64,000 bases of DNA from Spirochaetia bacterium (GCA_965203905.1 CBDBDQ010000005.1:7424001-7488000), one strand, 5' to 3'; counted from the first letter of the stretch, positions 1,723 to 54,441 are shown. Numbers and translations are program-made. Notes: a model not told the origin generated them from the letters alone.

Positions 1723-2277
1723 CTAACCTGTTTCGTCTTGGTTCGCTTTCGTCTGTTCGGCCTTCTGGTCGGCGACCGCCTGCAGGACCCGTGCCACCCG
1801 TTCCACCGCTGCGCGCAGGACGTAGGCGAGACCGCGCACGGGGCCGTTCATGGCGCCCATCAGCAGCGCCAGGAGCTGGTCGCGGCTCGGCAGCCGTGAC
1901 AGCGCCACCACCTCCTGCGGGCCGATCGCCTTGCCGTCGACATATCCGCCCTTCACCTTGACCGGCGCGTTGCGACCGAAGTCCAGCAGCGCCTTGGAGA
2001 CCGCGGCCACGTCGTCGCGTACCAGTGCCAGCGCCGTGGGTCCGGTCAGGTACTCGTCGGTTCCCTCACGCCCCAGCTGTTGCAACGCAATCTTGGTATA
2101 CCGGTTCTTGACCACCGAGTAGCGCGCGCTGCTGGCGCGCAGCAGACCGCGCAACTCCGTAATCTGGCTGACCGACAGGCCGCGGAAGTCGGAGAAATAG
2201 ACATTCGGATACTCCTCCAGCGCCGCCTTCAGCGCCGCCACCTGGTCGATCTTGTACTGTTGCACGCCCTCAGCCAT
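1723..2277 (-). CDS. rplJ: 50S ribosomal protein L10
   Basis: [14 protein letters not shown]...VVKN...LTGPTALA...[12 protein letters not shown]; start taken at MAEGVQQYK, overlapping the rplA stop. Confidence 0.96.
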
Positions 2278-2956
2278 GGGCCACCGATTCCTGCTCCACC
2301 CTGATGCCGGGTCCCATGGTCGAGCTGACGGCCACGGAGGCGATGAATTCTCCCTTGAGGTCGGGCGGCCGGCGCTTGCCGATCTCGTCGAGGAGCGCGG
2401 AAACGTTCTCACCGACCGGCTCCGGGTCCATCGACGCCTTGCCGACCGCCATGTGCACCACGCCGGTCTTGTCGGCGCGGAACTCCACCCGCCCGCGCTT
2501 GAGCTCCGCGATCGCGGCGCTCAGATCATTGGTAACGGTACGCGTCTTCGGGTTGGGCATCAGCCCTCTGCGGCCGAGCACCGGTCCCAACCTGCCGACG
2601 TGGCGCATCATGTCCGGCGTGGCCACGGCCACGTCGAAGTCCAGCCAGCCGCCGCGGATCTTTTCGACCAGATCCTCCGCGCCGACGTGAGCGGCCCCGG
2701 CGGCCTGCGCCTCTTGCGCCTTCTCATCGCGGGCGAACACCAGGATCCGCTGCTCCGCCTGAAACCCGTGCGGCAGCACGGTGGTGTCACGCACCGTCTG
2801 GTTGCCCTTGATGTTGAGCTTGACATGGCACTCCACGGTCTCGTCGAAGTTCGCGGAAGAGTTGCTCTTGACCATGGCGAGGGCTTCCGCGAGGGGATAG
2901 CTGCGGGCGCGGTCCAGCCGCTCCGCGGCCGCCCGGTAGCGCTTGCTGCGTGGCAT
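2270..2956 (-). CDS. rplA: 50S ribosomal protein L1
   Basis: FDETVE...[12 protein letters not shown]...[15 protein letters not shown]...SSTMGPG. Confidence 0.98.
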
Positions 2957-2961
2957 CTGCT

Positions 2962-3393
2962 TCAGTCCTCCACCGTTACGCCCATGCTGCGGGCAGTGCC
3001 GGCTATCACCTTGGACGCCGCCTGCAGATCATTGGCGTTGAGATCCTGCATCTTGCGGGTCGCGATTTCCTCGAGCGCGGCACGACTGATGACGCCGACC
3101 TTGGTGCGGTTCGATTCCGGCGATCCCTTGTCGAGACCGATCGCCTTCTTGATCAGCACCGCGGCCGGCGGCGTCTTGATCTCGAAGCTGAAGGTACGGT
3201 CGGCGAAGACCGTAATCACGACCGGGACCGTCAGGCCCGGCTCCTCGCTCTTGGTGCGGTCGTTGAACTGCTGCACGAATTGCGGCGCGCTCACACCGTG
3301 TGGACCCAGTGCCGGTCCCACCGGCGGTGCCGGCGTCGCCTGCCCCGCGGGCACCTGCAACTTGATGACTGCGTTGACGCGTTTCTTGGCCAT
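2962..3393 (-). CDS. rplK: 50S ribosomal protein L11
   Basis: MAKK...[20 protein letters not shown]...IAGTARSMG. Confidence 0.98.
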
Positions 3394-3406
3394 GCTTGCT
3401 CCTGAC

Positions 3407-3961
3407 TTACACCTTCTCCACCTGGAGAAAGTCCAGCTCCACCGGCGTCGAGCGGCCAAAGATGCCCACCGACACCCGCAGCTTGCCCTTCTCCAGGTTG
3501 ACTTCCTCTACGGTACCGGTAAAGGAGTCGAACGGGCCGTCGACGATGCGCACCGACTCGCCGAGCGAGAAGGACTGCCGCGGCCGCATCATGCGATCGG
3601 TCTTGATGGCGCCCGACTTCTGCAGTATCGAACGCACCTCGTCACCGGAAATCGGCTGCGGCTTGCGGCCGGTCTGTGCTCCCACGAAGGCCGTCACTCC
3701 CTGAATCCGGCGGATCGAGGAGGTCAGCTCCTTCCAGCGCGCGTCGCCCAGATCCATCTCCAGGAGAATGTAGCCGGGCAGGAACTTCTTGGAGGTGACG
3801 CGCTTCTTGCCGTCCCTGACCTCGACCACCTCTTCCTGGGGCACCTTGACGTCGAACAGCTGCTCCTTGAACTCCTGGCTCTCCATGAGGCGAGTCAGGT
3901 GCTTCTGCACCTTGTTCTCGTAACCTGAATAGGTGTGAACTACGTACCAGCCTTTCGCCAT
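3407..3961 (-). CDS. nusG: Transcription termination/antitermination factor NusG
   Basis: [14 protein letters not shown]...PGYIL...KOW motif [11 protein letters not shown]...[12 protein letters not shown]. Confidence 0.98.
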
Positions 3962-4006
3962 TTCGTGCTCGTCGGGTTACCTCAACCTGCGTCGCGTACC
4001 GGTCTT

Positions 4007-4186
4007 CTAAAAGATGAAATCGATGGCCTGGAAGAAAACGAAGTCGACGATTCCCAGAGCCAGAGCGATCAGGGCGACCGATATCAGTACTATCCTGGTT
4101 GAGTTTCCAACCTCCTCACGACTCGGCCACGACACCTTGCGCAACTCGGCATAGCTCTCGCGAAAAAACTGAACGATGCGCTTCAC
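4007..4186 (-). CDS. secE: Preprotein translocase subunit SecE (59 aa, below the ORF-track cutoff)
   Basis: Manual translation from GTG: MKRIVQFFRESYAELRKVSWPSREEVGNSTRIVLISVALIALALGIVDFVFFQAIDFIF. ELRKVSWP motif; sits between tRNA-Trp and nusG. Confidence 0.95.
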   Translation of the reverse strand: MKRIVQFFRESYAELRKVSWPSREEVGNSTRIVLISVALIALALGIVDFVFFQAIDFIF

Positions 4187-4240
4187 AGCCCCTCACACGC
4201 TCGCATTTTTGCTTCCGCACCTACCTGCCGACAGGCGCTC

Positions 4241-4314
4241 CAGGCCAGGCAGGATTCGAACCTGCAACATCCGGTTTTGGAGACCGGCGCTCTGCCAATT
4301 GGAGCTACTGGCCT
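4241..4314 (-). tRNA. tRNA-Trp (CCA)
   Basis: AGGCCAG-TAGCTCCAATTGGCAGAGC-GCCGGT-CTCCAAA-ACCGG...GGTTCGAATCC...CTGGCCT-G cloverleaf; 3' CCA not encoded. Confidence 0.96.
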
Positions 4315-4459
4315 TTGCTGCTCCAGCCGCCCACCGTCAGCAGGCGCCGGACTACCACCCGCGGCGGACCAGCCCCGCGACGGACCGGTCGCCAGCGTAC
4401 ACCCGAGCCCGGTGCGTCCTGTCCCCGGCGCAACCAACGATCGCGCCGCCCGGGAGGCC

Positions 4460-4651
4460 CTACTTGACCCGGCCCTCCCGATGCCGCGCATGGGTGCGAC
4501 AACGCGGACAGTACTTCATCAGTTCCAGCTTTCCCTGCACCGTGCGGCGGTTCTTGGGAGTCGTGTAATTGCGCACACGGATTCCATTGGTTGCCTCGGA
4601 GCACGGCACACACTCCAACGACACCAACTCGACAACTTTCGCCTTGGCCAT
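4460..4651 (-). CDS. rpmG: 50S ribosomal protein L33 (CxxC...CxxC zinc-binding type)
   Basis: MAKAKVVELVSLECVPC...RNYTTPKNRR...KLELMKYCPRCRTH. Confidence 0.95.
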   Translation of the reverse strand: MAKAKVVELVSLECVPCSEATNGIRVRNYTTPKNRRTVQGKLELMKYCPRCRTHARHREGRVK

Positions 4652-4713
4652 CCTACGGAGATCTCCACCTCTTGTCGGAAGCGAGAATATAGACCCCTGA
4701 TCAAGAAAAGACA

Positions 4714-4786
4714 AGCCCCCGACCGGACTTGAACCGGTGACCCCCACCTTACCATGGTGGTGCTCTGCCAACTGAGCTACAGAGGC
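4714..4786 (-). tRNA. tRNA-Thr (GGT)
   Basis: GCCTCTG-TAGCTCAGTTGGCAGAGC-ACCACC-ATGGTAA-GGTGG...GGTTCAAGTCC...GGGGGC-T; CCA not encoded. Confidence 0.95.
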
Positions 4787-4900
4787 CGGACATACTCAGA
4801 AGCCACCGCAAGCGGACCGACCCAGCAGCGGATCAACCCGGCAGCGGATCAACGGCCCCTTCCCTCCAGGAGCGGCGCCGCATGGCTCCTCCAGTGAGGC

Positions 4901-4930
4901 AAGCTACTCAGCCTCCCACCGCCGTGTCAA
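4901..4930 (-). promoter_or_regulatory. Putative sigma70 promoter for tRNA-Thr/rpmG/secE/nusG
   Basis: TTGACA-N18-TAGCTT on the minus strand, overlapping the rsmD 3' end. Confidence 0.55.
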
Positions 4931-5492
4931 CGGTACCCCGGACAACACGTTCGAAGATGCACACCGCGGAACCGCCGTAGCGGCGGCGCTCGAGGCAGGC
5001 GAATCCCGGTGCGCCCGGCAGCGCCTCCTGAACCGGCAGGTGGAGCAGCACCAGGGCGCGGTCGCGCAGCAGGGCGCCGTCACCCAGCGCCGCCAGCAGT
5101 TCCGCCTTGTAGCGATAGCCAAACGGCGGATCGACGAAGGCCAGATCCCACCCGCCACCGGCGGCGCGACGCGCTCGGGCAAGGAAGCGTTCGCAGGGTG
5201 AGATGTGGATACGCACTGCCGCACTCACGAAGCTGGTGTTGCGCCGCAAGCAGGTGCGCTTGCGCGGGTCTCGCTCCACCAGTGTGACGCTGGCTGCTCC
5301 CCGCGACGCCGCCTCCACCGCCACGCTGCCGGAGCCGCTGAACAGGTCCAGGAAGTGCGCCCCCTCCATGACCACACCACGCGCCGCCAGCACGTTGAAC
5401 AGCGCCTCGCGCATCCGGTCGGTGGTCGGGCGCACCGGGGGCGGCGGGACCTCCAGGCGCCGGCCACGATAGCGGCCACCGGTAACGCGCAT
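4908..5492 (-). CDS. rsmD: 16S rRNA m2G966 methyltransferase RsmD
   Basis: MRVTGGRYRGRRL...RPTTDRMREALFN...LDLFSGSG...EAASRGA...DPPF. Confidence 0.95.
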   Translation of the reverse strand: MRVTGGRYRGRRLEVPPPPVRPTTDRMREALFNVLAARGVVMEGAHFLDLFSGSGSVAVEAASRGAASVTLVERDPRKRTCLRRNTSFVSAAVRIHISPCERFLARARRAAGGGWDLAFVDPPFGYRYKAELLAALGDGALLRDRALVLLHLPVQEALPGAPGFACLERRRYGGSAVCIFERVVRGTVDTAVGG

Positions 5493-5497
5493 GCCGG

Positions 5498-7567
5498 CTA
5501 ATCTCCCGCGCCGGCCGCGCGCGGCGTGCCGGGCGCGGCGCATGCGTTGCGGGCGTCGCGCCGCGCCTGCTGCGCAAGCGCCAGATCGCGTCCCAGGTCG
5601 GCCACCCGCAGCTCCGGCATACCGGCTTGCCGCAGGCCGAGCAGCTCGCCCGGTCCCCGCAGCGTCAAGTCGCGTTCGGCGATCTCGAAGCCGTCGGCGG
5701 ACTCCTTCAGCGCCCGCAGCCGCGCCGCCCCGGTGGCGGCCAGCGACGCCGAATAGAGGAGAAACGCGTAGCCCTGGCGAGGCCCTCGCCCGACGCGGCC
5801 GCGCAACTGGTGCAGGGTCGCCAGCCCGAACCGCTCGGCTCCCAGCACCACCATGCCGGAAGCGTTGCTCACGTCCACGCCTACCTCCACCACGGTGGTC
5901 GCCACCAGCACCGCCAGCTCACCATTGCGGAACGCCTCCATGGCGTCATGCTTCTGCTGCTCGGGCATGGCACCGTGGATCAGCCCCACGCCGAACTCCG
6001 GGAAGACCTCGGTGGTCAGCGTAGCGTGCAACGACACGGCGTCGGGAATCGGCGCGGGCGGCGCCCCGCCGTCATCCGGTGCCGGATCGGAGCCGCTGCC
6101 GTCGGCCGCCGGAGACTCCCCGATTCTGGGTGCGACGAAGTAAGCCTGCCCGCCGCCAGCCAGTTCCCGCCGCACCCGTGCCAACACCTCGGGCAGCCGA
6201 TCGCTGCGTGCCAGGTGGGTACGTACGGGGAGACGTCCGGGCGGCAACTGTCGAATCAGCGACAACTCCAGGTCGCCGTACACCGTCAGGGCGAGGGAAC
6301 GCGGGATCGGGGTCGCCGTCATGAGCAGGAGATCGGCTCCCGGGTTGCGCTCCAGCAGGTGGCGGCGCTGCGCTACGCCGAACCGGTGCTGCTCATCCAC
6401 GATCACCAGTCCCAGACGTCCGAACGCCACGTCACCCTGCAACAGTGCATGGGTGCCGACCAGGAGGTCGATTTGCCGGGCTCGCAGCGCGGCGAGCAAG
6501 TCCTGCCGCCCCGCGCGGCGCCCGCGGCTGGCGTCGGGAGCCGTGTTGCCCGTCAGCAGCGCCACGTTGATTCCGCAGGGAGCGAGCACGCCGGCGGCCG
6601 TTCGAGCGTGCTGCCGGGCGAGCAACTCGGTCGGGACGATCAGCGCCACCTGCTGCTGCGCCTCGATGACACAGGCGGCGGCCAGCAACGCTACCAGCGT
6701 CTTGCCACAGCCAACCTCCCCCTGCAGCAGGCGCGCGCCGGGCAGCGGCGCGCGCAGCCCGGCGGCGATCTCACGGCATACCGTCTCCTGGTCGCCGGTC
6801 AGCGCAAACGGCAGCCCGCGGAGCACCCGGTCGGACAACGCACCGGAAAAGTAGCGCGGCGCCCTTCGCGGCGGCTGCCGCCGGTGCAGAGCGAACTGCA
6901 GTTGCAGCAACTCGGCGTAGGCCACCGAGGTACGCGCGTGGCGCAGTGCCGCGCTATCGTCGGGGAAGTGCAGCGCTCGTATCGCGGCCGCCACCGGCAG
7001 CAGGCCGCGGCGTCTGCAGTAGCTGTCCCAGGGTGTCTCCAGCCCCTGCAGGCAGGTACACGCGGCGAGCATGGTCCGGCGCAGCAGCGCCGGGCGCACG
7101 CCCTCGGCAAGGGGGTAGACGGGTATGATGCGACCGAAGCTCGCCGCATCGGCGCCACGCTGCAGCTCGAACGTGCCCGCCTCCAGCGCCGTGCCGCGAC
7201 GTTCGAACACGGCCGCTACCGTGATCCGGGTACCGACCGGAAGGGAGCGGGCCAGAAACCGGCGGCCGAAACAGAGCAGCGCCGCGCTTGCCGGCTCCCC
7301 GGACTGCCCGGCGCCAAGCTCCAGCCGCAGGTGGCGGCCGCGCGGGCCAAACCAGCGGTGTGCCGTCACGGTCGCCTGCACCACTACCGGCCGCCCCGGC
7401 AGCACCGAGGACAGTGGTGTGAATCGGCTGCGATCCTCGTGGGCGCGTGGGAAGTGCTCCAGCAAGTCGCCCACCGTCGCCAAACCCAGACGCGCCAAGG
7501 CCCGCGCCGTGGCCGGGCCCACCCCCGGCAGGCTGGTCAACGGCGCGGTCAGGGTCGCCAGCAACAC
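5498..7567 (-). CDS. recG: ATP-dependent DNA helicase RecG
   Basis: RLLQGEVGCGKT, DEQHRFG, MTATPIPRSL, VVEVGVDV, LHQLRGRVGRG, DLTLRGPGE. Confidence 0.97.
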   Translation of the reverse strand: MLLATLTAPLTSLPGVGPATARALARLGLATVGDLLEHFPRAHEDRSRFTPLSSVLPGRPVVVQATVTAHRWFGPRGRHLRLELGAGQSGEPASAALLCFGRRFLARSLPVGTRITVAAVFERRGTALEAGTFELQRGADAASFGRIIPVYPLAEGVRPALLRRTMLAACTCLQGLETPWDSYCRRRGLLPVAAAIRALHFPDDSAALRHARTSVAYAELLQLQFALHRRQPPRRAPRYFSGALSDRVLRGLPFALTGDQETVCREIAAGLRAPLPGARLLQGEVGCGKTLVALLAAACVIEAQQQVALIVPTELLARQHARTAAGVLAPCGINVALLTGNTAPDASRGRRAGRQDLLAALRARQIDLLVGTHALLQGDVAFGRLGLVIVDEQHRFGVAQRRHLLERNPGADLLLMTATPIPRSLALTVYGDLELSLIRQLPPGRLPVRTHLARSDRLPEVLARVRRELAGGGQAYFVAPRIGESPAADGSGSDPAPDDGGAPPAPIPDAVSLHATLTTEVFPEFGVGLIHGAMPEQQKHDAMEAFRNGELAVLVATTVVEVGVDVSNASGMVVLGAERFGLATLHQLRGRVGRGPRQGYAFLLYSASLAATGAARLRALKESADGFEIAERDLTLRGPGELLGLRQAGMPELRVADLGRDLALAQQARRDARNACAAPGTPRAAGAGD

Positions 7568-44830: not shown

Positions 44831-46387
44831 ATGTCCTCTGCCGTCTCTCCCGCCGAGGTCCGTAGCGAGGTAAGCGAGCTCAGCCTGCTGTTCGAGATCA
44901 GCCGCATCCTCGACTCCAGCCTCAACCTGCGCGACGTGGTGCACCCGGTGCTGGAGGCTCTGGGGCGACACATGGGGATCCGTCTGGGAGTGCTGACCCT
45001 GCTGAACCGGGCCACCGAGCGCATCTCCATCGAAGCCGCGTTCGGACTGTCGGAGAGCCAGCAGCGGCGCGGCCGGTACAAGATCGGCGAAGGGATTACC
45101 GGCGGCGTGGTGCAGTCCGGCGCCCCCGCCATCGTGCCCAAGATCGCGGACGAGCCGGCCATGGTGCATCGTACCGGTGCCGCCAGCAATCCGGATCTTG
45201 CCGAGCTCTCCTTCATCTGCGTGCCAATCAAGTCGGGCAATTCAGTAATCGGCTCGCTCGGCACCGACAAGCTGTTCCCGCCGGAGGCGCAGTTCGACGA
45301 GGACGTGCGCCTGCTCTCGATCATCGCCTCCATGATCTCGCAGGCGGTCAAGCTGCGGCAGGCTGCGCAGGAGGAACGGCGCCGTCTGTTGGAGGAGAAC
45401 GACCGCCTGCAGGAGGAACTGAAGGATCGGTTCCGGCCCCAGAACCTGGTCGGTAACTCGGAAGGCATGAACAGCGTGTTCCGCCTGGTGGCGCAGGTGT
45501 CCCGCAGCGACGCCACGGTGCTGGTGCGCGGCGAGACCGGCACGGGCAAGGACCTGGTGGCCCACGCGATCCACTACAACAGCGCCCGCGCCACCAAGCC
45601 GTTCATCAAGGTGAACTGCGCCGCGTTGCCGGAATCGGTGATCGAGAGCGAGCTGTTCGGGCATGAGCGCGGCGCGTTCACCGGCGCCGTGGCGACGCGC
45701 AAGGGACGTTTCGAGCTGGCCCACGGCGGGACCCTGTTTCTGGACGAGATCGGCGACCTGTCCTCGGCCACCCAGGTAAAACTGCTGCGGGTGCTCCAGG
45801 AAGGTGAGTTCGAGCGCGTCGGCGGCAACACCACCCAGCGCAGCGACGTCCGCGTCATCGCCGCCACCAACCGCAACCTCGAGGAACTGATCGAGCGGGA
45901 GGAGTTCCGGGCCGACCTCTACTACCGGCTCAACGTATTCCCGATCCACATCCCGCCGCTGCGCGAACGCAAGACCGACCTGCTGCTGCTGGCGGACCAC
46001 TTCGTCGCCAGGTACGGCCGCGAAAACCACAAGGACATCAAGCGCATCACGACCCCCGCGATCGACATGCTGATGAGCTACCACTGGCCCGGTAACGTGC
46101 GCGAACTGGAAAACTGCATCGAGCGGGCAGTGCTGCTGAGCAACGACGAGGTGATTCACGGCCACCACCTGCCGCCGACCCTGCAGACCGCGGACGCGAG
46201 CGGCACCACGCCCAGCGGCAGCCTGCAGGGCACCATCAACGCGATCGAGCGCGAGTTGATCCAGGACGCCCTCAAGTGGGCCAAGGGGAACATGGCGCGC
46301 GCCGCACGGTCGCTGCAGATCAGCGAGCGCATCATGGGCCTGCGGGTGCGCAAGTTCCGAATCGATCCCACCACCTACAAGAGCTGA
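44831..46387 (+). CDS. NifA-type sigma54 enhancer-binding protein (GAF-AAA+-HTH)
   Basis: GAF (YKIGEGITG, SFICVPIK), GETGTGKD, ESELFGHERGAFTGA, LFLDEIG, WPGNVREL, Fis-type HTH; no receiver domain. Confidence 0.95.
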   Translation: MSSAVSPAEVRSEVSELSLLFEISRILDSSLNLRDVVHPVLEALGRHMGIRLGVLTLLNRATERISIEAAFGLSESQQRRGRYKIGEGITGGVVQSGAPAIVPKIADEPAMVHRTGAASNPDLAELSFICVPIKSGNSVIGSLGTDKLFPPEAQFDEDVRLLSIIASMISQAVKLRQAAQEERRRLLEENDRLQEELKDRFRPQNLVGNSEGMNSVFRLVAQVSRSDATVLVRGETGTGKDLVAHAIHYNSARATKPFIKVNCAALPESVIESELFGHERGAFTGAVATRKGRFELAHGGTLFLDEIGDLSSATQVKLLRVLQEGEFERVGGNTTQRSDVRVIAATNRNLEELIEREEFRADLYYRLNVFPIHIPPLRERKTDLLLLADHFVARYGRENHKDIKRITTPAIDMLMSYHWPGNVRELENCIERAVLLSNDEVIHGHHLPPTLQTADASGTTPSGSLQGTINAIERELIQDALKWAKGNMARAARSLQISERIMGLRVRKFRIDPTTYKS

Positions 46388-46515: not shown

Positions 46516-46531
46516 TGGCACGGAACTTGCT
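46516..46531 (+). promoter_or_regulatory. sigma54 -24/-12 promoter of amtB-glnK
   Basis: TGGCAC-GGAAC-TTGCT matches the consensus TGGCAC-N5-TTGCW. Confidence 0.9.
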
Positions 46532-46576
46532 TAAGGATTGACATCACACAAATCCGTGTCAAGGAGGACTTGGAGA

Positions 46577-47923
46577 GTGCGACGTTTCCTGATAACAGCC
46601 GGAGCGCTGTTGGTGTTCGGCGCCGTCTACGGCTTCGCCGACTCGAATTCGAACGCTGTGGCAATCGACACCGTGTGGACCTTGATGGCCGCGGTGCTGG
46701 TGTTCCTGATGCAGGCGGGCTTCGCCATGCTGGAGACCGGATTCACCCGTGCCAAGAATGCCGCCAACATCATGATGAAGAACCTGATGGACTTCTCCAT
46801 CGGCACGCTGGCGTTCTGGGCGATCGGCTTCGGAATCATGTTCGGGGCGGACGCCGCGGGGCTGTTCGGCTCCAGCAAGTTCTTCCTGGCCGGGGCCGTG
46901 GTGGACGATGCGTTCTCCGACTTCACCTTCTGGGTATTCCAGGTGATGTTCGCCGCCACTGCCGCAACCATCGTCTCCGGTGCGGTGGCGGAACGCACCC
47001 AGTTCAAGGCCTACCTGGTCTACTCGGTGTTCATCAGCGGGCTGATCTATCCGGTGGTGGGGCATTGGATCTGGGGCGGCGGCTGGCTCAGCAACCTGGG
47101 GCCCAACGGCGTCATGGACTTCGCCGGCTCCACCGTGGTGCACTCGGTCGGCGGCTGGGCCGGTCTCGCTGGAGCCATGGTGCTGGGAGCCCGCGAGGGC
47201 AAGTACGTCAAGAACGGTGCCAACGGCCGGAGCGGCAAGGTCTTGGTCAACGCCATTCAGGGGCATAACATGCCGTTGGCCGCGCTCGGCGTGTTCCTGC
47301 TCTGGTTCGGATGGTTCGGCTTCAACGCCGGCAGCACCGTGGCCGGTACCGATCTGTCCATTGCGGCCATCGCCGTCACCACCAACCTGGCGGCCGCGTC
47401 GGGAGTGGTCGGCGCGCTGATCGTGGCCTGGATCATCTCCGGCAAGCCCGACCCCACCTTTGCCCTGAACGGCGCCATCGCCGGGCTGGTAGCCATCACC
47501 GCCGGCTGCGCCAACCTGTCGCCGGGCAGCGCCGTCATCGTCGGCTTCCTGGGCGGTGTGCTGGTGGTGTTGTCGGTGCAGTTCATAGACCGGGTGCTGC
47601 ACGTGGACGATCCGGTGGGCGCCATCTCCGCCCACGGCGTGGTCGGTGCCTGGGGCACCATCGCCGTCGGCCTGTTCGCGCAGGAAAAGTTCGGCGGCGT
47701 CAACGGCCTGTTCTTCGGCGGCGGTTTCGGCCAGTTGGGCGTGCAGATCGTCGGCGTGCTGGCGGTGTTCGCGTGGACCTTCGTCACTTCTCTGGTATTG
47801 TTCAAGCTGATCAAGGCCACCGTCGGCCTGCGGGTCAGCCGCAACGAGGAGCTGCGCGGGCTTGACATCGAGGAGCACGGCACCGAGGCGTACACCGATT
47901 TCGAGGTGTACACGACCCGCTAG
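46577..47923 (+). CDS. amtB: Ammonium transporter
   Basis: [54 protein letters not shown]; AAGGAGG SD before the GTG. Confidence 0.97.
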
Positions 47924-47936
47924 AGGAGAGGACTCA

Positions 47937-48278
47937 ATGAAGCTCATTATCGCCTACGTTCAGCCGCACAAGCTGAACGACGTAAAGCAGGAGTTGTTCA
48001 AGGAGGAGGTCGGCAAGATGTCGGTAACCAACGCCTTGGGCTGCGGCCAACAGATGGGTTACACCGAGACCTATCGCGGTGTCCAGATCGAGGTAAACCT
48101 GCTCAAGAAGGTGCGTATGGAGATCGCCGTCAACGACGAATTCCTGGAACGTACCATCGACGCCATCGTGCGCGGTGCCCGCACCGGTGAGATCGGCGAC
48201 GGCAAGATCTTCGTGGTCGAGCTCAATCAGTGTATCCGCATCCGCTCCGGTGAAGTGGGCAAGGTGGCTATCGGCTGA
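47937..48278 (+). CDS. glnK: PII nitrogen regulatory protein (GlnK-type)
   Basis: MKLIIAY..P.KL..VK...YRG...[12 protein letters not shown]...RIRSGE; directly after amtB. Confidence 0.96.
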
Positions 48279-48313
48279 TCCCCGCGCGGCAGGAGCCGAC
48301 TCCGTTTTTCTCG

Positions 48314-48356
48314 ACCCCGACTCGGTGGCGCCGGAGCCATCGGGTCGGGGTTTCTT
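48314..48356 (+). terminator. Rho-independent terminator between convergent glnK and glnE
   Basis: ACCCCGACTCGGTGGC...GCCATCGGGTCGGGGT stem followed by TTCTT; a small GGAG/CTCC hairpin with GTTTTT lies just upstream. Confidence 0.75.
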
Positions 48357-48366
48357 GCGCCCGTCG

Positions 48367-51300
48367 TCAGCGGCCGGCCTCGGTCACGTAGCGCAGATAG
48401 GTGGCACGTACCCGCGCGGTTACGGTCGCCAGCAGGTCATTGAACGCCGACACCGAGGCGCCGGCGCCCATCATGCGCCGCGCCAGCGCCGCCAGGGCGG
48501 CGTCGGAGCTGGGCAGTACGTGCACCTGACGGTCCTCGAACACCTGCAGAGAGTGCTCCAGGCGACGCAGAAACAGGTAGTCCTCCCGCAACTGCGCGGC
48601 GCTGCCGGCGCCGAGCACACCCGCCCGCTGCAGGCCCTCGAGCGCCGCGACGGTGCTGCCGCACACCAACTCCGGATGCTGCACCAGGTGCTGCAGTTGC
48701 AACCCCTGAACCAGGAACTCGAGGTCGCGTATGCCGCCGGCACCCGACTTGATGTCGCGGCCCTGGTTGAGTCGGCGCTGAGCCTGACCGGCAACGGCCA
48801 GATTGCGCAGGCGCTCGATGGTGGCGAAGGCGCGCGCGCCGCGCCCGTCCGGATCGCTCCCGAGCCGGGCGAACGCGGCACGCGCGCGCTGCAACAGGGC
48901 CTGACCGACCGCCCGATTGCCCGCGACCGGGCGCATGCGCAACAGCGCCTGCACCTCCCAGTCGTTGGCCGGCCCCGCGTAGTAGGCGGCCAGAGAGCTG
49001 AGTGACTGTGCCAGCTCCCCGGAGCTGCCGTAGGGACGCAGACGCCAATCGACCCGGTACGCGGCCATCTCGCCACGGTGCGCCGCCAGCGTCGTCCCCA
49101 GGGTGCGGGCCAGCTCCGTGACGCCGTGCGCCAGCTCCGTGCTCCTCGCGGGCGCGAGGCCGCGATCGTCGTACAGGGCCACCAGGTCGATGTCGGAGCT
49201 GTAGTTCAGCTCCTCCGCTCCCAGCTTGCCGTAGGCCAGAATGCACACCCGCTCGCGCAGCTCGGGCCGCTCCGCGGCCAGATCGCGTACCGCCACGTGT
49301 ATGAACGCCTCGGCGACCACGGACAGCTCCCGCATCACGTCGGTGACGGGGGCCTGCAGGCAGTAGTCCCGAATCGCGATCCGCAGGATCTCGCGCCGCC
49401 GCAGGATGCGTAGCCGCGGCCGCCAGAATCGGCGCCCGCCCAACTCCTTCACCACGTCCTGCAGCCGGCGCCGCCGGCGCAGTCGCTCCGGTTCGGTAAC
49501 CCAGTCGAACAGCTCCGGACTGCGCACCAGGGCATCCGCCAGGAATTGACTGGTGGCGAAGATCCGAATCAACAGCTCCAGACGCGTCGGCTGCCGCATC
49601 AGGGTACGGAAGTGGTGGCCCGGCTCGTCCAGTGCGGCGACGTAGCGTTCCCAGTTGTTGAGAGCGCGGTCGGGATCGGACTGGTGCGCCAGTTCGTCAC
49701 CGGCGAGCACGGCCAGACGGGCGAACTCCATGCGGTCGGGCGCGCGGGAGGCCAGGCGCACCACATTGGCCGCCGCCCGTTGCGGATGGGCGAAGCCCAG
49801 CCGGCTCAGGACGCGGGCCGCGCCGCCGGCGTCGGCACCGTCATCGGTCGGGCTCAAAACCAGGTCGGCGACGCCGGTAATGCTGCCGGAGCCCAGGGAG
49901 CCGTGGCCGAGGTGGGTGTCGATGAAGCCGCGCACGGCAGCGCGGCGGGTCTCCAACTCCAGGTGCAGCCGCTGCGCCGGAGTCAGCCCCGACGCTCCCC
50001 GGTACGCCATGCGCCGCGCCAGGTGGCCGTACTCTACCGCGCCCGGTTCCGGCAGGTAGAGGTCGAGGGCGGACCCGCGCAGGATACGCAACGCGTTGAT
50101 CAGGCGGCGGTAGAAGTCGTATGCGGCGCCCACCTGCTCCGCCTCCAGCTGCGCCAGAATCCCGGCCTGCGCCAACTCCTCGAGGGCCCGGTGTACGCTG
50201 GGAGTGCGCAACGCCGCCCGGTCCGTACCGTAGCGAACCTGCAGCATCTGCACCGCGTACTCCACGTCCACCAGGGCACCGGGACTGAACTTGGCGTTCA
50301 GGCGGCTCTCGGCGTCGTATTCTTCTACCTGGCGGCGGCGCATCCGGTGCACCTCGTCCAGCGGTATGGCACCGGTGCGGTAGACGAACTCGTCGCGCAG
50401 CCGTTCCAGGCGCGCGCCGAGCTCCCGGTCGCCCGCCACGGCGCGCAGCCGGATCAGCGCCAGCCGTTCGTAGGCCAGCGCTTCGCCGCCGGGGCCGTAG
50501 TAGCGGGCGAAACTCTCCAGGCTCACGGCACGCGGGCCGGCCGCCCCGTACGGCCGCAGGCGCAGGTCGACCTCGAAGATCCCGGCCCGCTTGGCACTGA
50601 TGCGGTTGACCGTTTCCTGCACCAGGCGCCCGTAGTACTCGCCGTTGCCGATCTGCTGCGGGCCGGTGGTGGTCCCGTGGTCGCCGTACACGAACATCAA
50701 CTCGATGTCGGAGGCGTAGCCCAGGGCGCTGCCGCCCATCTTGCCGAGTCCCACCACCGCCAGCCGGGTATCGATGCCGCCCAGGGTCCGCGGTATTCCG
50801 AACTGCGGGCGCAGCGCGTCCGCGGCCAACCCCAGCGCGGCGGCAACCACACACTCGGCCAGCCGGGTCAGGCGCGCGGCGAGCTGCGGCACACCCCCCT
50901 CGCGACTGAGCACGTGCTCCAGGTCGATCAGGAACGCCTCCCGATCCTTGAACGCGTTGAGCGCGGCCACCCGGTCGGCCGCGGTGGGCGCCGCCGCCAC
51001 CGCCTCCCGCAGCCGTTGCCCCACGGTGGCGTCGTCACTGAAGCGGTGCCGTTGCTCCGGTTCCAACATCGGCAACAGGGTTTCGAACTGCTGGCGAATG
51101 AAGTCCTCCCACAGGTAGTCGCTGGTGCCGAGGAGCAGTGCCAGCTCACCCATGATGCGGGGGTCGGCCAGCAGATCGAGGAGACGTCCCTCCTCCGGCA
51201 GCCCGAGGATCTGCTCCGTAAGCTGTTCGAAGCGCAGCAACGCCGCGGAGGGGTCGGGCGCCAGGCCCACGAAGTAGGCGAACTGCTTGGTGAGCAGCAC

Positions 51301-52254
51301 CGAGAGCTTGATCTGATTCAACAGCGTGGGATTGGCGATCGCCGCGCCCGCACGATCCACCACATCCACCACGTCCTCTACCCGTCCCGACTCGGTCGTG
51401 ATCCGTACGCGCTGGATGGACACGTCGCGCAACGCCAGCGCGGCACTGAAGCTGTACAGGAACAGCGGCGTATCCTGAGACACGATGCGCATGCGCGTGA
51501 CGGCGCCGCCGTCGGCGGCCACGACGTTGGAAACTTCGATCTGCACCGGATACAGCGCGGGCGATGTGGGCCAGTGGCGCCGGATGGTCTCCGCCACCAT
51601 TTCGCTCACCCGGCGCCGCGCCGCCTCCGGTGCGCTCCGTTCCAGGTCGCCCGCCACCTCCAGCAGGCGCTGCTCCAGCTGCTGGCGCCACGCCTCCACG
51701 CTCAGGGCACCGGCCTCGGCGGAAACGCGCCGGCCGCGGAAGCGGTCGACGATCATCCGCCGCGGTTGCGGCGCTTGCCGCAGGGTACGGCTTCGCCCGC
51801 GCCGCCGGAGGCGGTCGGCGGCCGCGCGCGAGGTGGCTCGCCGCGATGCCCGTGCGGTCGCGCCTGCCGCAGCATGAGAACCTTCATCGACGCTGCGGGA
51901 CTCGCTGCCGTAGGTGAACGCGGTCCCGGAGTCGATGGCGAATCCGCAGGCACCGAGCACGCCGGTGATGAGAGAGAACATGCCCGCGTGGTCGGCGGCG
52001 AGAATCGTGCACGACAGCGCCTCCGCATCGCCGGCGCCTGCCGCGACCGAGCCGGTCTCCGCGGCGGCGGCCGCCAGCACCACCGCCAGCGGCCGGCGGC
52101 CGTCCAGCCGGCTGATCTCGCGGATGTGCGCCACCACCTCGGGCAGGGAGAACTCAGCGTAGTACTCGTCTCCCAGCCGTGCCAGGTGCGCGTCGATGAA
52201 CGGTTCGTCGACTCCGTCGAGCTGCCTGGCGAGCACCTCACGCCGCGGCTTCAT
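48367..52254 (-). CDS. glnE: Glutamine synthetase adenylyltransferase/deadenylylase with N-terminal GlnD-like ACT domains
   Basis: Two nucleotidyltransferase domains (GKMGGSALGYASDIE...VDLRLRPYG; GKLGAEELNYSSDID...VDWRLRPYG) preceded by two ACT-like units. Confidence 0.93.
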   Translation of the reverse strand: MKPRREVLARQLDGVDEPFIDAHLARLGDEYYAEFSLPEVVAHIREISRLDGRRPLAVVLAAAAAETGSVAAGAGDAEALSCTILAADHAGMFSLITGVLGACGFAIDSGTAFTYGSESRSVDEGSHAAAGATARASRRATSRAAADRLRRRGRSRTLRQAPQPRRMIVDRFRGRRVSAEAGALSVEAWRQQLEQRLLEVAGDLERSAPEAARRRVSEMVAETIRRHWPTSPALYPVQIEVSNVVAADGGAVTRMRIVSQDTPLFLYSFSAALALRDVSIQRVRITTESGRVEDVVDVVDRAGAAIANPTLLNQIKLSVLLTKQFAYFVGLAPDPSAALLRFEQLTEQILGLPEEGRLLDLLADPRIMGELALLLGTSDYLWEDFIRQQFETLLPMLEPEQRHRFSDDATVGQRLREAVAAAPTAADRVAALNAFKDREAFLIDLEHVLSREGGVPQLAARLTRLAECVVAAALGLAADALRPQFGIPRTLGGIDTRLAVVGLGKMGGSALGYASDIELMFVYGDHGTTTGPQQIGNGEYYGRLVQETVNRISAKRAGIFEVDLRLRPYGAAGPRAVSLESFARYYGPGGEALAYERLALIRLRAVAGDRELGARLERLRDEFVYRTGAIPLDEVHRMRRRQVEEYDAESRLNAKFSPGALVDVEYAVQMLQVRYGTDRAALRTPSVHRALEELAQAGILAQLEAEQVGAAYDFYRRLINALRILRGSALDLYLPEPGAVEYGHLARRMAYRGASGLTPAQRLHLELETRRAAVRGFIDTHLGHGSLGSGSITGVADLVLSPTDDGADAGGAARVLSRLGFAHPQRAAANVVRLASRAPDRMEFARLAVLAGDELAHQSDPDRALNNWERYVAALDEPGHHFRTLMRQPTRLELLIRIFATSQFLADALVRSPELFDWVTEPERLRRRRRLQDVVKELGGRRFWRPRLRILRRREILRIAIRDYCLQAPVTDVMRELSVVAEAFIHVAVRDLAAERPELRERVCILAYGKLGAEELNYSSDIDLVALYDDRGLAPARSTELAHGVTELARTLGTTLAAHRGEMAAYRVDWRLRPYGSSGELAQSLSSLAAYYAGPANDWEVQALLRMRPVAGNRAVGQALLQRARAAFARLGSDPDGRGARAFATIERLRNLAVAGQAQRRLNQGRDIKSGAGGIRDLEFLVQGLQLQHLVQHPELVCGSTVAALEGLQRAGVLGAGSAAQLREDYLFLRRLEHSLQVFEDRQVHVLPSSDAALAALARRMMGAGASVSAFNDLLATVTARVRATYLRYVTEAGR

Positions 52255-52309
52255 CGGTACCTTCAGGGTACGCGAACCGGACCCGCGGAGTCACCTTGTC
52301 GCGAAAACG

Positions 52310-52377
52310 CCAGGAGCCATGCCGCCGCAACGACATGGCTCCTGCTGAGACGCTCTTGCCTGCTGCTTCAGCAGCAG
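52310..52377 (-). terminator. Hairpins between glnA and glnE
   Basis: CAGGAGCCATG-N12-CATGGCTCCTG (52310-52343) and CTGCTGC-TTCA-GCAGCAG (52360-52377). Confidence 0.55.
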
Positions 52378-52389
52378 CGCACCGTCACC

Positions 52390-53811
52390 TCAGATGTCGT
52401 AGTACAGGGCGAACTCCCACGGGTGCGGGCGCAGGTCGAGGGCGGTAACCTCGTTCTCCATCTTGTAGTCGATCCAGGTCTCGAGCACGTCCTCGGTGAA
52501 CACGTCCCCCTTGAGCAGGAACTCATGGTCGTCACGCAGCGCTTCCAGCGCCTCCCGTAGCGAACCGGGGGTGGTTCGGACCTTGGCCAGCTCCTCCGGC
52601 GGCAGATCGTAGAGGTCACGGTCCAGCGGCTCGCCGGGATGGATCTTGTTGGTGATGCCGTCGATCGCCGCCATCACCATGGCCGCGAACCCGAGATAGG
52701 GATTGCAGGATGGATCGGGACAGCGGAACTCGACGCGCTTCGCCTTGGGTGAGGTGGAGTACATGGGAATGCGCACGGCGGCGCTGCGGTTGCGGCGCGA
52801 GTAGGCCAGGTTGACCGGTGCCTCGAAGCCCGGCACCAGCCGCTTGAAGCTGTTGGTCGTGGGATTGGTGAAGCCGATGATCGCGGCCGCGTGGGTGAGC
52901 AGTCCGCCAATGGCGTACAGTGCCATCTCCGACAGCCCTGCGTAACCGTCGCCGGCAAACAGGTTGTTGTCACCCTTCCAGAACGACATGTGGACGTGCA
53001 TGCCGCTGCCGTTGTCCTCGAACAGCGGCTTGGGCATGAAGGTGGCGGTTTTGTTGTAGCGGCGCGCGGTGTTCTTCACCACGTACTTGTACTTGAGCAT
53101 GTTGTCGGCCATGGTCACCAGGGGCGCGAAGCGCATGTCGATCTCGCCCTGGCCGCCGGTGGCTACCTCGTGATGCTGCGCCTCGATGAGAACGCCCATG
53201 TCCTCCAGCGTCATCATCATCTCGCTGCGCAGGTCCTGCAGGCTGTCGGTCGGCGGCACCGGGAAGTAGCCTTCCTTGTAGCGCGGCTTGTAGGCCAGGT
53301 TGGGGTTCTCTTCACGCCCGGAGTTCCAGCGCCCCTCCTCCGAGTCGATGTGATAGTAGCCCTCGTGCTCGTTCTGGTCGAAGCGCACGTCGTCGAAGAT
53401 GAAGAATTCCGCCTCCGGCCCGAAAAAGGCGATGTCGGCGAGGCCGGAGGAACTGAGGTAGGCCTCGGCCTTGCGTGCGATGTTGCGCGGGTCACGGGTG
53501 TAGTCCTCTCCGGTCATCGGATCCGAGATGTTGCAGATCATGACCAGCGTCTTGCGGGCCAGGAACGGGTCGATGAAGCCGGTCTCCGGAATCGGCTTGA
53601 CCAGCATGTCGGACTCATTGATCGACTGCCAGCCGCGGATGCTGGAACCGTCGAAGCCGAGGCCGCCCTCGAAATCGTCCTCCGACAGCTCGCGGGCGGG
53701 AATCGAGAAATGCTGCCACAGACCGGGGAAGTCCATGAAGCGCAGGTCGATGACCTCGATCGTTTCCTCGGCGATCAGCTTCATCACATCACCAGGTGTC
53801 TTGAGATTCAC
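52390..53811 (-). CDS. glnA: Glutamine synthetase type I (adenylylatable)
   Basis: [43 protein letters not shown], adenylylation loop DLYDLPPEE. Confidence 0.98.
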
Positions 53812-53861
53812 TGTTTCCTCCTCATGAATCGCGCGCTAGCGCACTACGTCACCCAAGTATT

Positions 53862-53877
53862 AGCAAGATCCATACCA
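53862..53877 (-). promoter_or_regulatory. sigma54 -24/-12 promoter of glnA-glnE
   Basis: Minus strand TGGTAT-GGATC-TTGCT, with correct GG-N10-GC spacing. Confidence 0.85.
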
Positions 53878-53919
53878 TGGCTCGAAACCACTCGATACTG
53901 CCTGCATCGCACGCGGAGA

Positions 53920-53967
53920 GCTACATGTATGTAGGGCACCGCGCCAGGATTCCTACCAAATGGTTCG
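53920..53967. promoter_or_regulatory. Paired upstream activator sites for glnA
   Basis: GCTAC-N6-GTAGG (53920-53935) and CCTAC-N6-GTTCG (53952-53967), 32 bp apart. Confidence 0.7.
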
Positions 53968-54015
53968 ATTCTCGATTCGTTGATCGCCGAGCCAGGGGCG
54001 TGCTATACAACCGAC

Positions 54016-54441
54016 GTGGCAAGTCTATCGAGAACCCTGGCCCTGATCAAACCCGACGCCTTCGACCGCCGCCTAACCGGCAAGCTCATCGACGCCGCCC
54101 TGGAAGCCGGCCTCGCCATCGTGTCCGTAAAGAGCGTCAAACTCAACCGCGCCCAGGCCGAGGCGTTCTACGCGGTGCATCGCGAGCGGCCCTTCTTCTC
54201 GTCGCTGGTCGAATTCATGACCTCGGGCACCACGGTGGCCATGGTCCTGGAGGGAGCGGACGCGGTTGCCCTCTGGCGCCGGGCCATGGGCGCCACCGAC
54301 CCCGCCGACGCGGCGGAGGGCACCATCCGCCGCCGCTTCGCGGAGTCGATAGAACGCAACTGCTGCCACGGCTCAGACTCCGACGCCAACGCCGCCATCG
54401 AAATAGGCTGCTTCTTCAGCGGCGAGGAACTGCTCAGATAG
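54016..54441 (+). CDS. ndk: Nucleoside diphosphate kinase
   Basis: RTLALIKPDA, FYAVH.ERPFF, GATDP..A..GTIR, N..HGSDS. Confidence 0.97.
   Translation: MASLSRTLALIKPDAFDRRLTGKLIDAALEAGLAIVSVKSVKLNRAQAEAFYAVHRERPFFSSLVEFMTSGTTVAMVLEGADAVALWRRAMGATDPADAAEGTIRRRFAESIERNCCHGSDSDANAAIEIGCFFSGEELLR

Follow-up and report, generated by a model that had tools for sequence, protein, structure and literature searches.

We analyzed a 64,000-nucleotide stretch of a Spirochaetia bacterium genome (GCA_965203905.1, CBDBDQ010000005.1:7424001-7488000; hereafter the window, with positions counted from its first letter) that carries on its minus strand, at 48367..52254, an open reading frame (ORF) of the GlnE family, P0001, encoding 1,295 amino acids plus a stop. 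The frame around it is open over 1,307 codons, and its ATG start is consistent with the N termini of 54 aligned homologues. Pfam models PF03710 (1.4e-92) and PF08335 (2.6e-36) each match it in two stretches, and P0001 has the two tandem PF03710 plus PF08335 units expected of a GlnE. Ahead of these lie 326 residues with a tandem ACT pair of the GlnD type. The second unit is of the adenylyl-removing (AR) type, and the first is assigned here to the adenylyltransferase (AT) lineage, which makes the architecture very probably ACT-ACT-AT-AR, the reverse of the usual GlnE order with AR N-terminal and AT C-terminal. The same order had been proposed in a first-pass annotation of this DNA; its coordinates, 48367-51300, take in just the two nucleotidyltransferase halves, whereas the ORF extends to 52254 and begins with the ACT pair (residues 1 to 326). 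P0001 scored below all three NCBIfam GlnE equivalog cutoffs (NF010707, 484.9 versus 625; NF008292, 423.2 versus 487; NF010706, 350.2 versus 724).

The limits of the two halves were set by a custom half-domain hidden Markov model (HMM), whose envelopes, 327-780 and 853-1288, define units of about 440 residues. The first unit, a nucleotidyltransferase followed by the helical PF08335 domain, spans residues 327 to 780 (49915..51276, minus strand) and contains GKMGGSALGYASD516-I-E518, FEVD563LRLRP, and KFSPGALVDVEY. A Gly/Ser/Asp/Ala-rich linker, weakly conserved in the family alignment, fills the gap between the HMM envelopes (residues 781 to 852; 49699..49914, minus strand). The second unit occupies residues 853 to 1288 (48391..49698, minus strand), with GKLGAEELNYSSD1021-I-D1023, YRVD1069WRLRP, GAGGIRDLEF, and LRRLEHSLQVFEDRQVHVLP. 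All eight motif strings quoted in the first-pass annotation occur in the minus-strand translation of 48367..52254. Those of the first unit are LGKMGGSALGYASDIELMF (residues 503 to 521; 50692-50748), FEVDLRLRP (residues 560 to 568, including D563), AKFSPGALVDVEY (residues 654 to 666), and RRLINALRIL (residues 716 to 725); those of the second are GKLGAEELNYSSDIDL (residues 1009 to 1024; 49183-49230), YRVDWRLRP (residues 1066 to 1074, including D1069), IKSGAGGIRDLEF (residues 1168 to 1180), and FLRRLEHSLQVFEDRQVHVLP (residues 1228 to 1248). Both units contain the catalytic G-x-G...D-x-[DE] motif, the third Asp, and RLRP (D516/E518/D563 and D1021/D1023/D1069); among 54 aligned members of the family, at least 90% conserve these motifs. 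The DxE that had been read in the first unit is D516-I-E518 (50701-50709), and the DxD of the second is D1021-I-D1023 (49186-49194).

The identity of the C-terminal half was consistent across methods. When the NCBIfam scan was run on P0001 cut in three parts, residues 801 to 1295 aligned to the N-terminal half of all three GlnE models (73-439/946, 12-485/1010, and 118-466/986), and residues 331 to 800 aligned to the C-terminal half of the same three (521-916/946, 569-979/1010, and 547-932/986). By their PDB titles, 1v4a is the E. coli GlnE N-terminal domain and 3k7d the C-terminal adenylylation domain; 1v4a matches the second unit with 90.8 bits over residues 1065 to 1261. In hhalign comparisons, the C halves of the permuted proteins scored 704 against canonical AR and 531 against canonical AT. 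HMMs built from canonical proteins only called the second half AR type in all 115 full-length relatives (70 classed AR-AR and 45 AT-AR), with a median AR margin of 48 bits in the 73 proteins classed AT-AR over both relative sets. The motifs given in the first-pass annotation as marks of the AR domain, ELN[YFL]SSDIDL, GGIR[DE]xEF, and LRxxE[HN]xLQ...Q[TV][HQ]xLP, proved to be present in 26 of 29 canonical N-terminal halves, the other 3 being degenerate, and the AT marks, ELG[YF]xSDLD and YE[VIA]D, characterize C-terminal halves of the proteobacterial type among the same 29 tabulated GlnEs. By profiles, profile-profile scores, and the tree described next, the C-terminal half of P0001 is certainly of the AR type.

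For the first half, phylogeny carried the assignment. A tree of canonical AR and AT halves had been suggested as a check in the first-pass annotation, with the first half joining canonical N-terminal halves as the outcome that would speak against the proposed order. For the trees, 48 proteins contributed 96 units: 12 were permuted, 7 had a sister architecture (AR-ACT-ACT-AT, described below), and 29 were canonical GlnEs, of which 7 came from the phylum sample, 7 from the lineage of the genome's own canonical GlnE, and 15 from named Gamma-/Betaproteobacteria and Desulfobacterales. A single branch separated the 29 canonical C-terminal, 12 permuted first, and 7 AR-ACT-ACT-AT C-terminal halves from the other 48, so that the first half of P0001 stood with canonical C halves and the second with N halves. 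Support for this branch in the Shimodaira-Hasegawa approximate likelihood ratio test (SH-aLRT) was 97 in IQ-TREE under LG+C20+F+G4 (posterior mean site frequency [PMSF] approximation) and 94.8 under LG+G4; a careful search gave an ultrafast bootstrap (UFBoot) of 97 and an SH-aLRT of 94.9. Forcing the permuted first halves onto the canonical N halves was rejected by the approximately unbiased (AU) test (log-likelihood difference, 131; p-AU, 4.3e-7), AU tests being run under LG+G4. Within the AT side, the first half was sister to the C-terminal half of the AR-ACT-ACT-AT proteins with support of 100/100.

Several results weigh against this assignment. With the E. coli halves as phmmer queries, the first half of P0001 matched AT at 117.3 and AR at 112.6 bits, and for several relatives AR beat AT. 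The canonical-only HMMs gave AT 214 versus AR 203 for P0001, and across the 115 full-length relatives they favored AR over AT in 70 and AT in 45, with tiny margins. Between 1 and 8 diagnostic columns were usable, and their states were mixed. The hhalign scores of the permuted first halves came to a near tie (AT 437 versus AR 422). The structure prediction that the first-pass annotation had also suggested bore out the GlnE fold but did not separate AR from AT: the AlphaFold2 model of the first unit, with a predicted local distance difference test score (pLDDT) of 83.8, matched 1v4a with a Z of 38.5 and 3k7d with a Z of 37.6. Finally, in a first tree with thin sampling, AT halves of the E. coli type came out next to the C halves of the permuted proteins (SH-aLRT, 90). 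That tree had long branches and only two proteobacterial-type references (E. coli and the genome's own canonical GlnE), and the placement vanished with 20 more canonical proteins. Calibration of hhalign clarified the scores. True AT halves of two lineages were no closer to each other than AT is to AR (+8 and -5), whereas AR halves are strongly conserved across lineages (604 versus 416). This explains the near ties of the first half. As classifiers of the first half, phmmer, the canonical-only HMMs, the diagnostic columns, and the fold comparison were set aside as not discriminating. The calibration removes the score-based objection to the AT assignment and adds no support for it. The first half is certainly not of the AR type, and its placement in the AT lineage is supported by the phylogeny, the three curated profiles, and its orthology with the C-terminal half of the AR-ACT-ACT-AT proteins.

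Next to the AT-lineage half, and fused directly before it, residues 1 to 326 (51277..52254, minus strand) carry N-terminal helices and then a tandem ACT pair of the GlnD type, as seen with NCBIfam GlnD models and an AlphaFold2 model. In five NCBIfam GlnD models, these residues match solely the ACT-ACT region at the C terminus; P0001 residues 16 to 316, for instance, correspond to TIGR01693 616-842/850, and PRK05092 is matched at 676-777/940. The AlphaFold2 model of residues 1 to 330, built from 54 homologues, had a pLDDT of 84 and a predicted template modeling score (pTM) of 0.81. ACT1 covers approximately residues 55 to 205 (51640..52092, minus strand), with strands and helices at 56-62, 79-87, 92-102, 105-114, and 167-176; ACT2 covers approximately residues 235 to 325 (51280..51552, minus strand) and abuts the AT-lineage half. 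Inside ACT1, a disordered Arg/Ala/Ser-rich insert (residues 117 to 165; 51760-51906, minus strand; pLDDT below 50 at 122-160) sits between strands and varies across the family alignment.

Fold comparisons with the ACT-pair model returned ACT-containing proteins as the top Foldseek matches, with weak E values from 3.5e-4. With VIA-align, the pair superposed on tandem-ACT proteins with Z of 11.8, 10.0, and 8.0, the best being the tandem ACT of Synechocystis aspartate kinase (3l76_B; Z 11.8, 165 residues aligned, root mean square deviation of 4.3) and the next the regulatory domain of threonine deaminase (Z 10.0). The ACT fold, ferredoxin-like with the order beta-alpha-beta-beta-alpha-beta, is present in the model in two copies, with single ACT domains superposing on each at Z of 7.4 to 9.8: ACT1 with the ACT-like GL3 protein 9c7n_B (Z 9.8, 82 of 85 residues over model positions 48-202) and the RelA ACT (Z 7.4 over 76-202), and ACT2 with PGDH ACT domains (Z 7.8 to 8.0 over 243-325) and the Rel ACT (Z 7.6 over 252-325). 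In P0001 itself, no Pfam ACT model gave a match at an E value of 0.01 or better, and none reached its gathering threshold. Among the 12 permuted relatives scanned, 3 had PF01842 ACT at 26.2 to 26.6 bits, below the cutoff of 27; one of these 3 also had PF13291 ACT_4 at 18.7 bits and another PF13740 ACT_6 at 16.6 bits, and one further permuted relative had the ACT-like PF24931 at 18.2 bits. PF24931 was also found in 4 of the 6 AR-ACT-ACT-AT relatives scanned (17.8 to 26.4 bits). These subthreshold matches in relatives fall where ACT2 lies in P0001.

P0001 is one member of a large family. A PF03710 match was present in 38 of the 151 genomes sampled from the window's phylum. The permuted gene was present in 6 of them (G000, the window's own genome, and G100, G051, G150, G030, and G094), 8 had a two-unit canonical GlnE, and 12 encoded proteins of about 1,180 to 1,320 amino acids ordered as an AR unit, an insert of about 300 amino acids, and a second unit. 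The remaining 12 were left unclassified: G076, G086, G103, and G146 had one strong match each, matches in G017, G057, G068, and G140 were fragmentary, and in G008, G049, G081, and G107 a subthreshold PF03710 match fell in the GlnD gene. By phmmer, P0001 residues 8 to 757 correspond to positions 432-1153 of the insert-bearing proteins and residues 948 to 1262 to their positions 73-385, and the insert matches the GlnD ACT region. Therefore, these proteins have the order AR-ACT-ACT-AT, and P0001 is a circular permutation of that form.

Database relatives gave the same picture. With HMMs for the two half types, X and A, 119 of the 120 best relatives of P0001 were ordered X-A (the exception, P0069, has X alone), and 118 of the 120 best relatives of the AR-ACT-ACT-AT protein L021 were ordered A-[269-314 aa]-X; as both HMMs derive from the sequences used for the trees, these counts show architecture and are no independent test. 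The ACT region as query found 376 representatives at 50% identity with E values of 1e-3 or better, 190 of them at 1e-10 or better. Source names for both forms were only GlnE, glutamine synthetase adenylyltransferase, or hypothetical protein, and the taxa named were "Deltaproteobacteria," Desulfobacterales, Spirochaetales/Spirochaetia, Pseudomonadota, Anaerolineae/Chloroflexi, Syntrophales, and Thermoanaerobaculia metagenome-assembled genomes. The permuted order is thus a lineage-wide architecture and not a local rearrangement.

Among the representatives, 18 proteins of 725 to 811 amino acids hold ACT-ACT and a single complete unit, and their C termini lie no more than about 30 residues from that unit. 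Using 17 of these 18 as queries, we obtained 80 metagenome loci: 54 permuted and uninterrupted (including 4 that run off a contig end), 3 permuted but frame-broken (L126, L174, and L176), 13 closed stand-alone ACT-ACT-AT ORFs, 5 AR-ACT-ACT-AT, and 5 that were ambiguous at contig ends. No AR unit was found in the flanking DNA examined for 10 of the 13 stand-alone ORFs, and the other 3 lie beside a separate AR gene. In L123, L129, L143, L156, and L196, ACT-ACT-AT stands alone, with no AR unit found within 2 to 4 kb. In L189, the AR and ACT-ACT-AT genes (1011-2663 and 2624-4915) are on the same strand and overlap, AR upstream; in L179 and L186, the AR gene is divergent from the ACT-ACT-AT gene. 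One AR-ACT-ACT-AT gene, L112 (G119:C18:36500-43500), is broken into ORFs 2037-4577 and 4608-5849. The break falls among the N-terminal helices of the AT unit and may reflect a sequencing error, a frameshift, or a pseudogene.

To place these forms, a tree of 105 ACT-linked halves was built with 8 canonical AT halves as the root. It gathered the 68 permuted rows, without exception, into one clade (SH-aLRT, 100), which also included 8 stand-alone and 4 ambiguous rows. Outside it were the fused AR-ACT-ACT-AT, the split, and two stand-alone forms, at a base without resolution. By their AR halves, the permuted and AR-ACT-ACT-AT proteins did not come out as sisters in the best tree, but a sister relationship is not rejected (log-likelihood difference, 1.37; p-AU, 0.45). 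This pattern fits a permuted fusion that arose once, with AR lost later in some descendants. We infer an ancestor with AR in front, as a fused or a separate gene, the direction being taken from the canonical order. The AR module may have split off from an AR-ACT-ACT-AT ancestor and fused again at the 3' end; alternatively, the permutation may have come about by tandem duplication and trimming. Across these forms, the covalent order of AR relative to ACT-AT would not appear to be critical to function.

The first unit's DxE had been noted as replacing the catalytic DxD. All 19 of the ACT-linked AT halves inspected carry it, and so do at least 90% of the 54 family members in the alignment; the signatures GYASD[IL]E, K[FY][ST]xGxLx[DE]xEY, and RxLINxLRxxRGxAxDL were likewise common to all 19. 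Because DxE is shared by the ACT-linked AT halves, we read it as a conserved hallmark of the subfamily, not a defect; DxE fits the Pol-beta-type motif. Judged by their motifs, both nucleotidyltransferase sites retain their catalytic carboxylates across the family. Degenerate halves do occur in other GlnEs. The 993- to 1,021-amino-acid GlnE frames L016, L018, and L019 (from G021, G047, and G005) have an N-terminal AR unit without G-K, DxD, RLRP, or GGIR and are presumably AT-only enzymes; GlnD is present in G005 and G047 and not in G021. Conversely, P0226 and P0237, relatives of the genome's canonical GlnE, have degenerate C-terminal AT motifs (SALELVF/SPLELLL, with RLRP lost) and would be AR-only variants of canonical GlnE.

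Directly upstream of P0001, on the same strand and separated by 135 bp, is glnA (52390..53811, minus strand), encoding a type I glutamine synthetase (GS) of 473 amino acids (PF00120, 1.3e-133; PF03951). Its adenylylation-loop tyrosine, aligned to E. coli Y398 (precursor numbering), is kept and is invariant in 4 of 4 sequences, and a GS-I substrate with the loop tyrosine, as a GlnE needs, is present. On the other strand and convergent with glnA-glnE are the ammonium transporter gene amtB (46538..47923, plus strand; PF00909, 5.9e-129) and, downstream of it, a glnK-like PII gene (47937..48278, plus strand; PF00543, 2.9e-23), whose product has Ile at position 51 instead of Tyr. A GAF/sigma-54 AAA+/HTH_8 activator gene lies at 44831..46387 (plus strand; PF00158, 1.1e-73; PF13185; PF02954). 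Two sigma-54-like elements are tentative: a -24/-12 element, TGGTATGGATCTTGCT (53862..53877, minus strand), with 2 mismatches 51 to 66 nt upstream of the glnA start, and TGGCACGGAACTTGCT (46516..46531, plus strand), directly before amtB and the window's only match with 0 mismatches. Across the window the pattern matched 33 times versus 28 expected, which is not above chance, and the glnA site rests on its position. In 47800-54100, a sigma-70 promoter scan found no promoter-like site, and a terminator scan found 3 terminator-like sites, all within genes and none between glnA and glnE.

G150 has the same layout, glnA-glnE versus glnK-amtB, and G100 has glnA, a hybrid histidine kinase, and then glnE. 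In G051, a gene for a cNMP-binding/CBS/DUF294 nucleotidyltransferase (L007:8073-9944, minus strand) lies about 1.5 kb from the permuted GlnE and is another sensor-fused member of the same nucleotidyltransferase superfamily. The window's genome also encodes a canonical AR-AT GlnE of about 975 amino acids (G000:C5 ~6171300-6174230, plus strand; L005:8305-11229), in which both sets of motifs are largely intact; this protein clusters with GlnEs of the proteobacterial type and has at least 120 close relatives at 56 to 91% identity. A second GS-like gene (L110:1150-2556; G000:C5 ~5291850-5293250) encodes 468 amino acids (PF00120, 294.9 bits) without an NLYDLP-type loop. In the other five permuted-gene genomes, the permuted gene is the sole GlnE (2 PF03710 matches, both in one ORF). 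From gene order and the retained loop tyrosine, it is likely that P0001 adenylylates and de-adenylylates the GS encoded just upstream. Two observations count against GS as its target: glnA is within reach at only 3 of the 6 permuted loci (those in G051, G030, and G094 lack it), and the genome has one GS with an adenylylation loop though two GlnEs, which could mean a different target.

The cascade of GlnD, PII, GlnE, and GS is a textbook case of signal integration, in which a GlnD-to-PII-UMP relay controls canonical GlnE; the glutamine response of E. coli GlnD is ascribed to its ACT domains. GlnD was not found in the window's genome, which is 98.7% complete: the best TIGR01693 match there was the P0001 ACT region itself (21.9 bits), and PF08335 matches were limited to the two GlnE genes. 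The genome has a single PF00543 match, that of PII. At the position of Tyr51, aligned to E. coli GlnB, PII has Ile in the window and Glu in G150 (L008:9034-9372, beside the permuted GlnE). Full-length GlnD was present in 0 of the 6 permuted-gene genomes (completeness, 95 to 100%), in 3 of the 12 AR-ACT-ACT-AT genomes (G132, G139, and G077; the others are 75 to 98% complete), and in 7 of the 8 two-unit canonical GlnE genomes (the exception being G021). Because these genomes are related, the association of GlnD with architecture is to be read as a pattern; it amounts to neither a statistical nor an independent-contrast test.

Other explanations of the locus can be set against a bifunctional, ACT-bearing GlnE. 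The architecture would be no true permutation if the first half were a diverged AR-like copy (ACT-ACT-AR'-AR) or an undifferentiated GlnE unit, as the AR-favoring HMM scores in 70 of 115 relatives, the 1v4a/3k7d tie, and the mixed diagnostic columns might suggest. However, true AR halves score 604 versus 416 across lineages in hhalign, the AR-type halves of the permuted and AR-ACT-ACT-AT proteins score 704 and 673 against canonical AR, and the first half scores only 422; the trees join it to all 29 canonical C halves, with the alternative rejected by the AU test; it lacks the AR signatures (the R in [YF]RxD, the R in GGIR, and EHxLQ...QxHxLP); and its orthologue in the sister architecture sits after AR, in the canonical AT position. 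We consider this explanation very unlikely. Slightly less probable again is a catalytically dead, regulatory half in a unidirectional enzyme. Degenerate N halves (L016, L018, and L019) and C halves (P0226 and P0237) exist elsewhere, as do stand-alone ACT-ACT-AT proteins, but both P0001 halves keep GxG...D-x-[DE], the third Asp, and RLRP, as do at least 90% of the 54 members. An artefact of assembly or gene calling, through fused genes or a misjoined contig, has next to no probability: nothing was found in its favor, the frame is open for 1,307 codons on a 7.8-Mb contig, and the architecture recurs in 5 other phylum-sample genomes, 119 of 120 relatives, and 54 uninterrupted metagenome loci.

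An alternative we regard as unlikely, yet deserving more weight than these, is that the DxE half next to the ACT pair has come to act on something else or by a different chemistry; it might, for example, modify PII or another nitrogen-regulatory protein, and P0001 would then be a functional stand-in for the missing GlnD and no GS modifier. In its favor, PII is present in a genome without GlnD, the ACT pair resembles that of GlnD, the PII gene is a convergent neighbor both here and in G150, the one GS that can be adenylylated already has a canonical GlnE in this genome, and the AT-lineage half is strongly diverged. Against this, Tyr51, the usual site of PII modification, is missing from the PII of the window and of G150, the gene immediately upstream on the same strand is a glnA that keeps its Tyr, and the permuted gene is the sole GlnE-family gene in five other genomes, where one neighboring GlnA keeps the Tyr. 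A bifunctional ACT-bearing GlnE, most likely modifying the adjacent GS, is in our judgment probably the best overall explanation of what the sequences contain.

Compared with known systems, P0001 shares with canonical GlnE (E. coli ATase) the two PF03710 plus PF08335 units, the same catalytic motifs, a predicted first-unit fold that matches both solved halves, and a position beside a GS with the adenylylation tyrosine. It differs in the reversed unit order, the additional 326-residue N-terminal ACT-ACT, the DxE for DxD in the AT-lineage unit, and a genome without GlnD whose PII has no Tyr51. It is a GlnE by fold, motifs, and context, yet with reversed order and a sensor module absent from canonical GlnE. 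The AR-ACT-ACT-AT proteins (for example, L021 and P0389-P0508) have the same ACT pair right before a DxE-type AT half, an intact AR-type half, and glnA adjacent or near in 2 of the 7 loci examined, but their AR half is N-terminal, in canonical order, and 3 of 12 genomes keep GlnD. GlnD itself shares the tandem ACT (C-terminal in GlnD), the PF08335 helical domain, and the nucleotidyltransferase superfamily. Unlike GlnD, P0001 has no HD-domain Pfam match, scores 40.8 versus a cutoff of 519.4 with TIGR01693, and has GlnE-type nucleotidyltransferase units with the ACT pair N-terminal, not C-terminal, to the catalytic unit. The AMPylation domain of Legionella DrrA/SidM (6yx5; Z 20.9, 299 residues aligned) has a GlnE-like nucleotidyltransferase fold but is a single unit at 10% identity, without ACT and with Rab as its target, and is related to P0001 in fold only. 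In the literature searched, a scope that excluded subscription journals and domain-architecture databases, no account of a permuted or ACT-bearing GlnE was found; a HEPN survey mentioning GlnE and circular permutation (PMC3710099) is unrelated to GlnE domain order.

Where and how GlnE senses glutamine is still being mapped, and a 2026 preprint (10.64898/2026.09.02.748916) places the glutamine-responsive site of canonical GlnE in its central-plus-AT part. The ACT pair here occupies the matching position. It may bind glutamine or another amino acid that signals nitrogen status, and the ligand-bound pair could directly shift the balance of AT versus AR on the adjacent GlnA; such direct control would replace the GlnD-to-PII-UMP relay. 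A direct glutamine sensor is a plausible role for the pair, though one to which we give a little less than even weight. More tentatively still, the protein might be a self-contained glutamine switch, in which the sensor of GlnD was grafted onto the AT half, GlnD and PII Tyr51 were dispensed with, and the AR cassette became movable. The AR half would then be N-terminal, C-terminal, encoded by a separate gene, or absent, and reciprocal control of AT and AR would be free of a fixed covalent order and may act in trans.

Genome annotation currently calls these ACT-bearing proteins simply GlnE. They form a large natural family with a recognizable ACT pair, a ligand-binding module, at the mapped position of the glutamine site, in two permuted forms and as split genes, and they offer an experimental handle on glutamine binding, on AT/AR toggling, and on the need for a linkage order of the halves. 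The family suggests that many bacteria may run a shortened cascade without GlnD.

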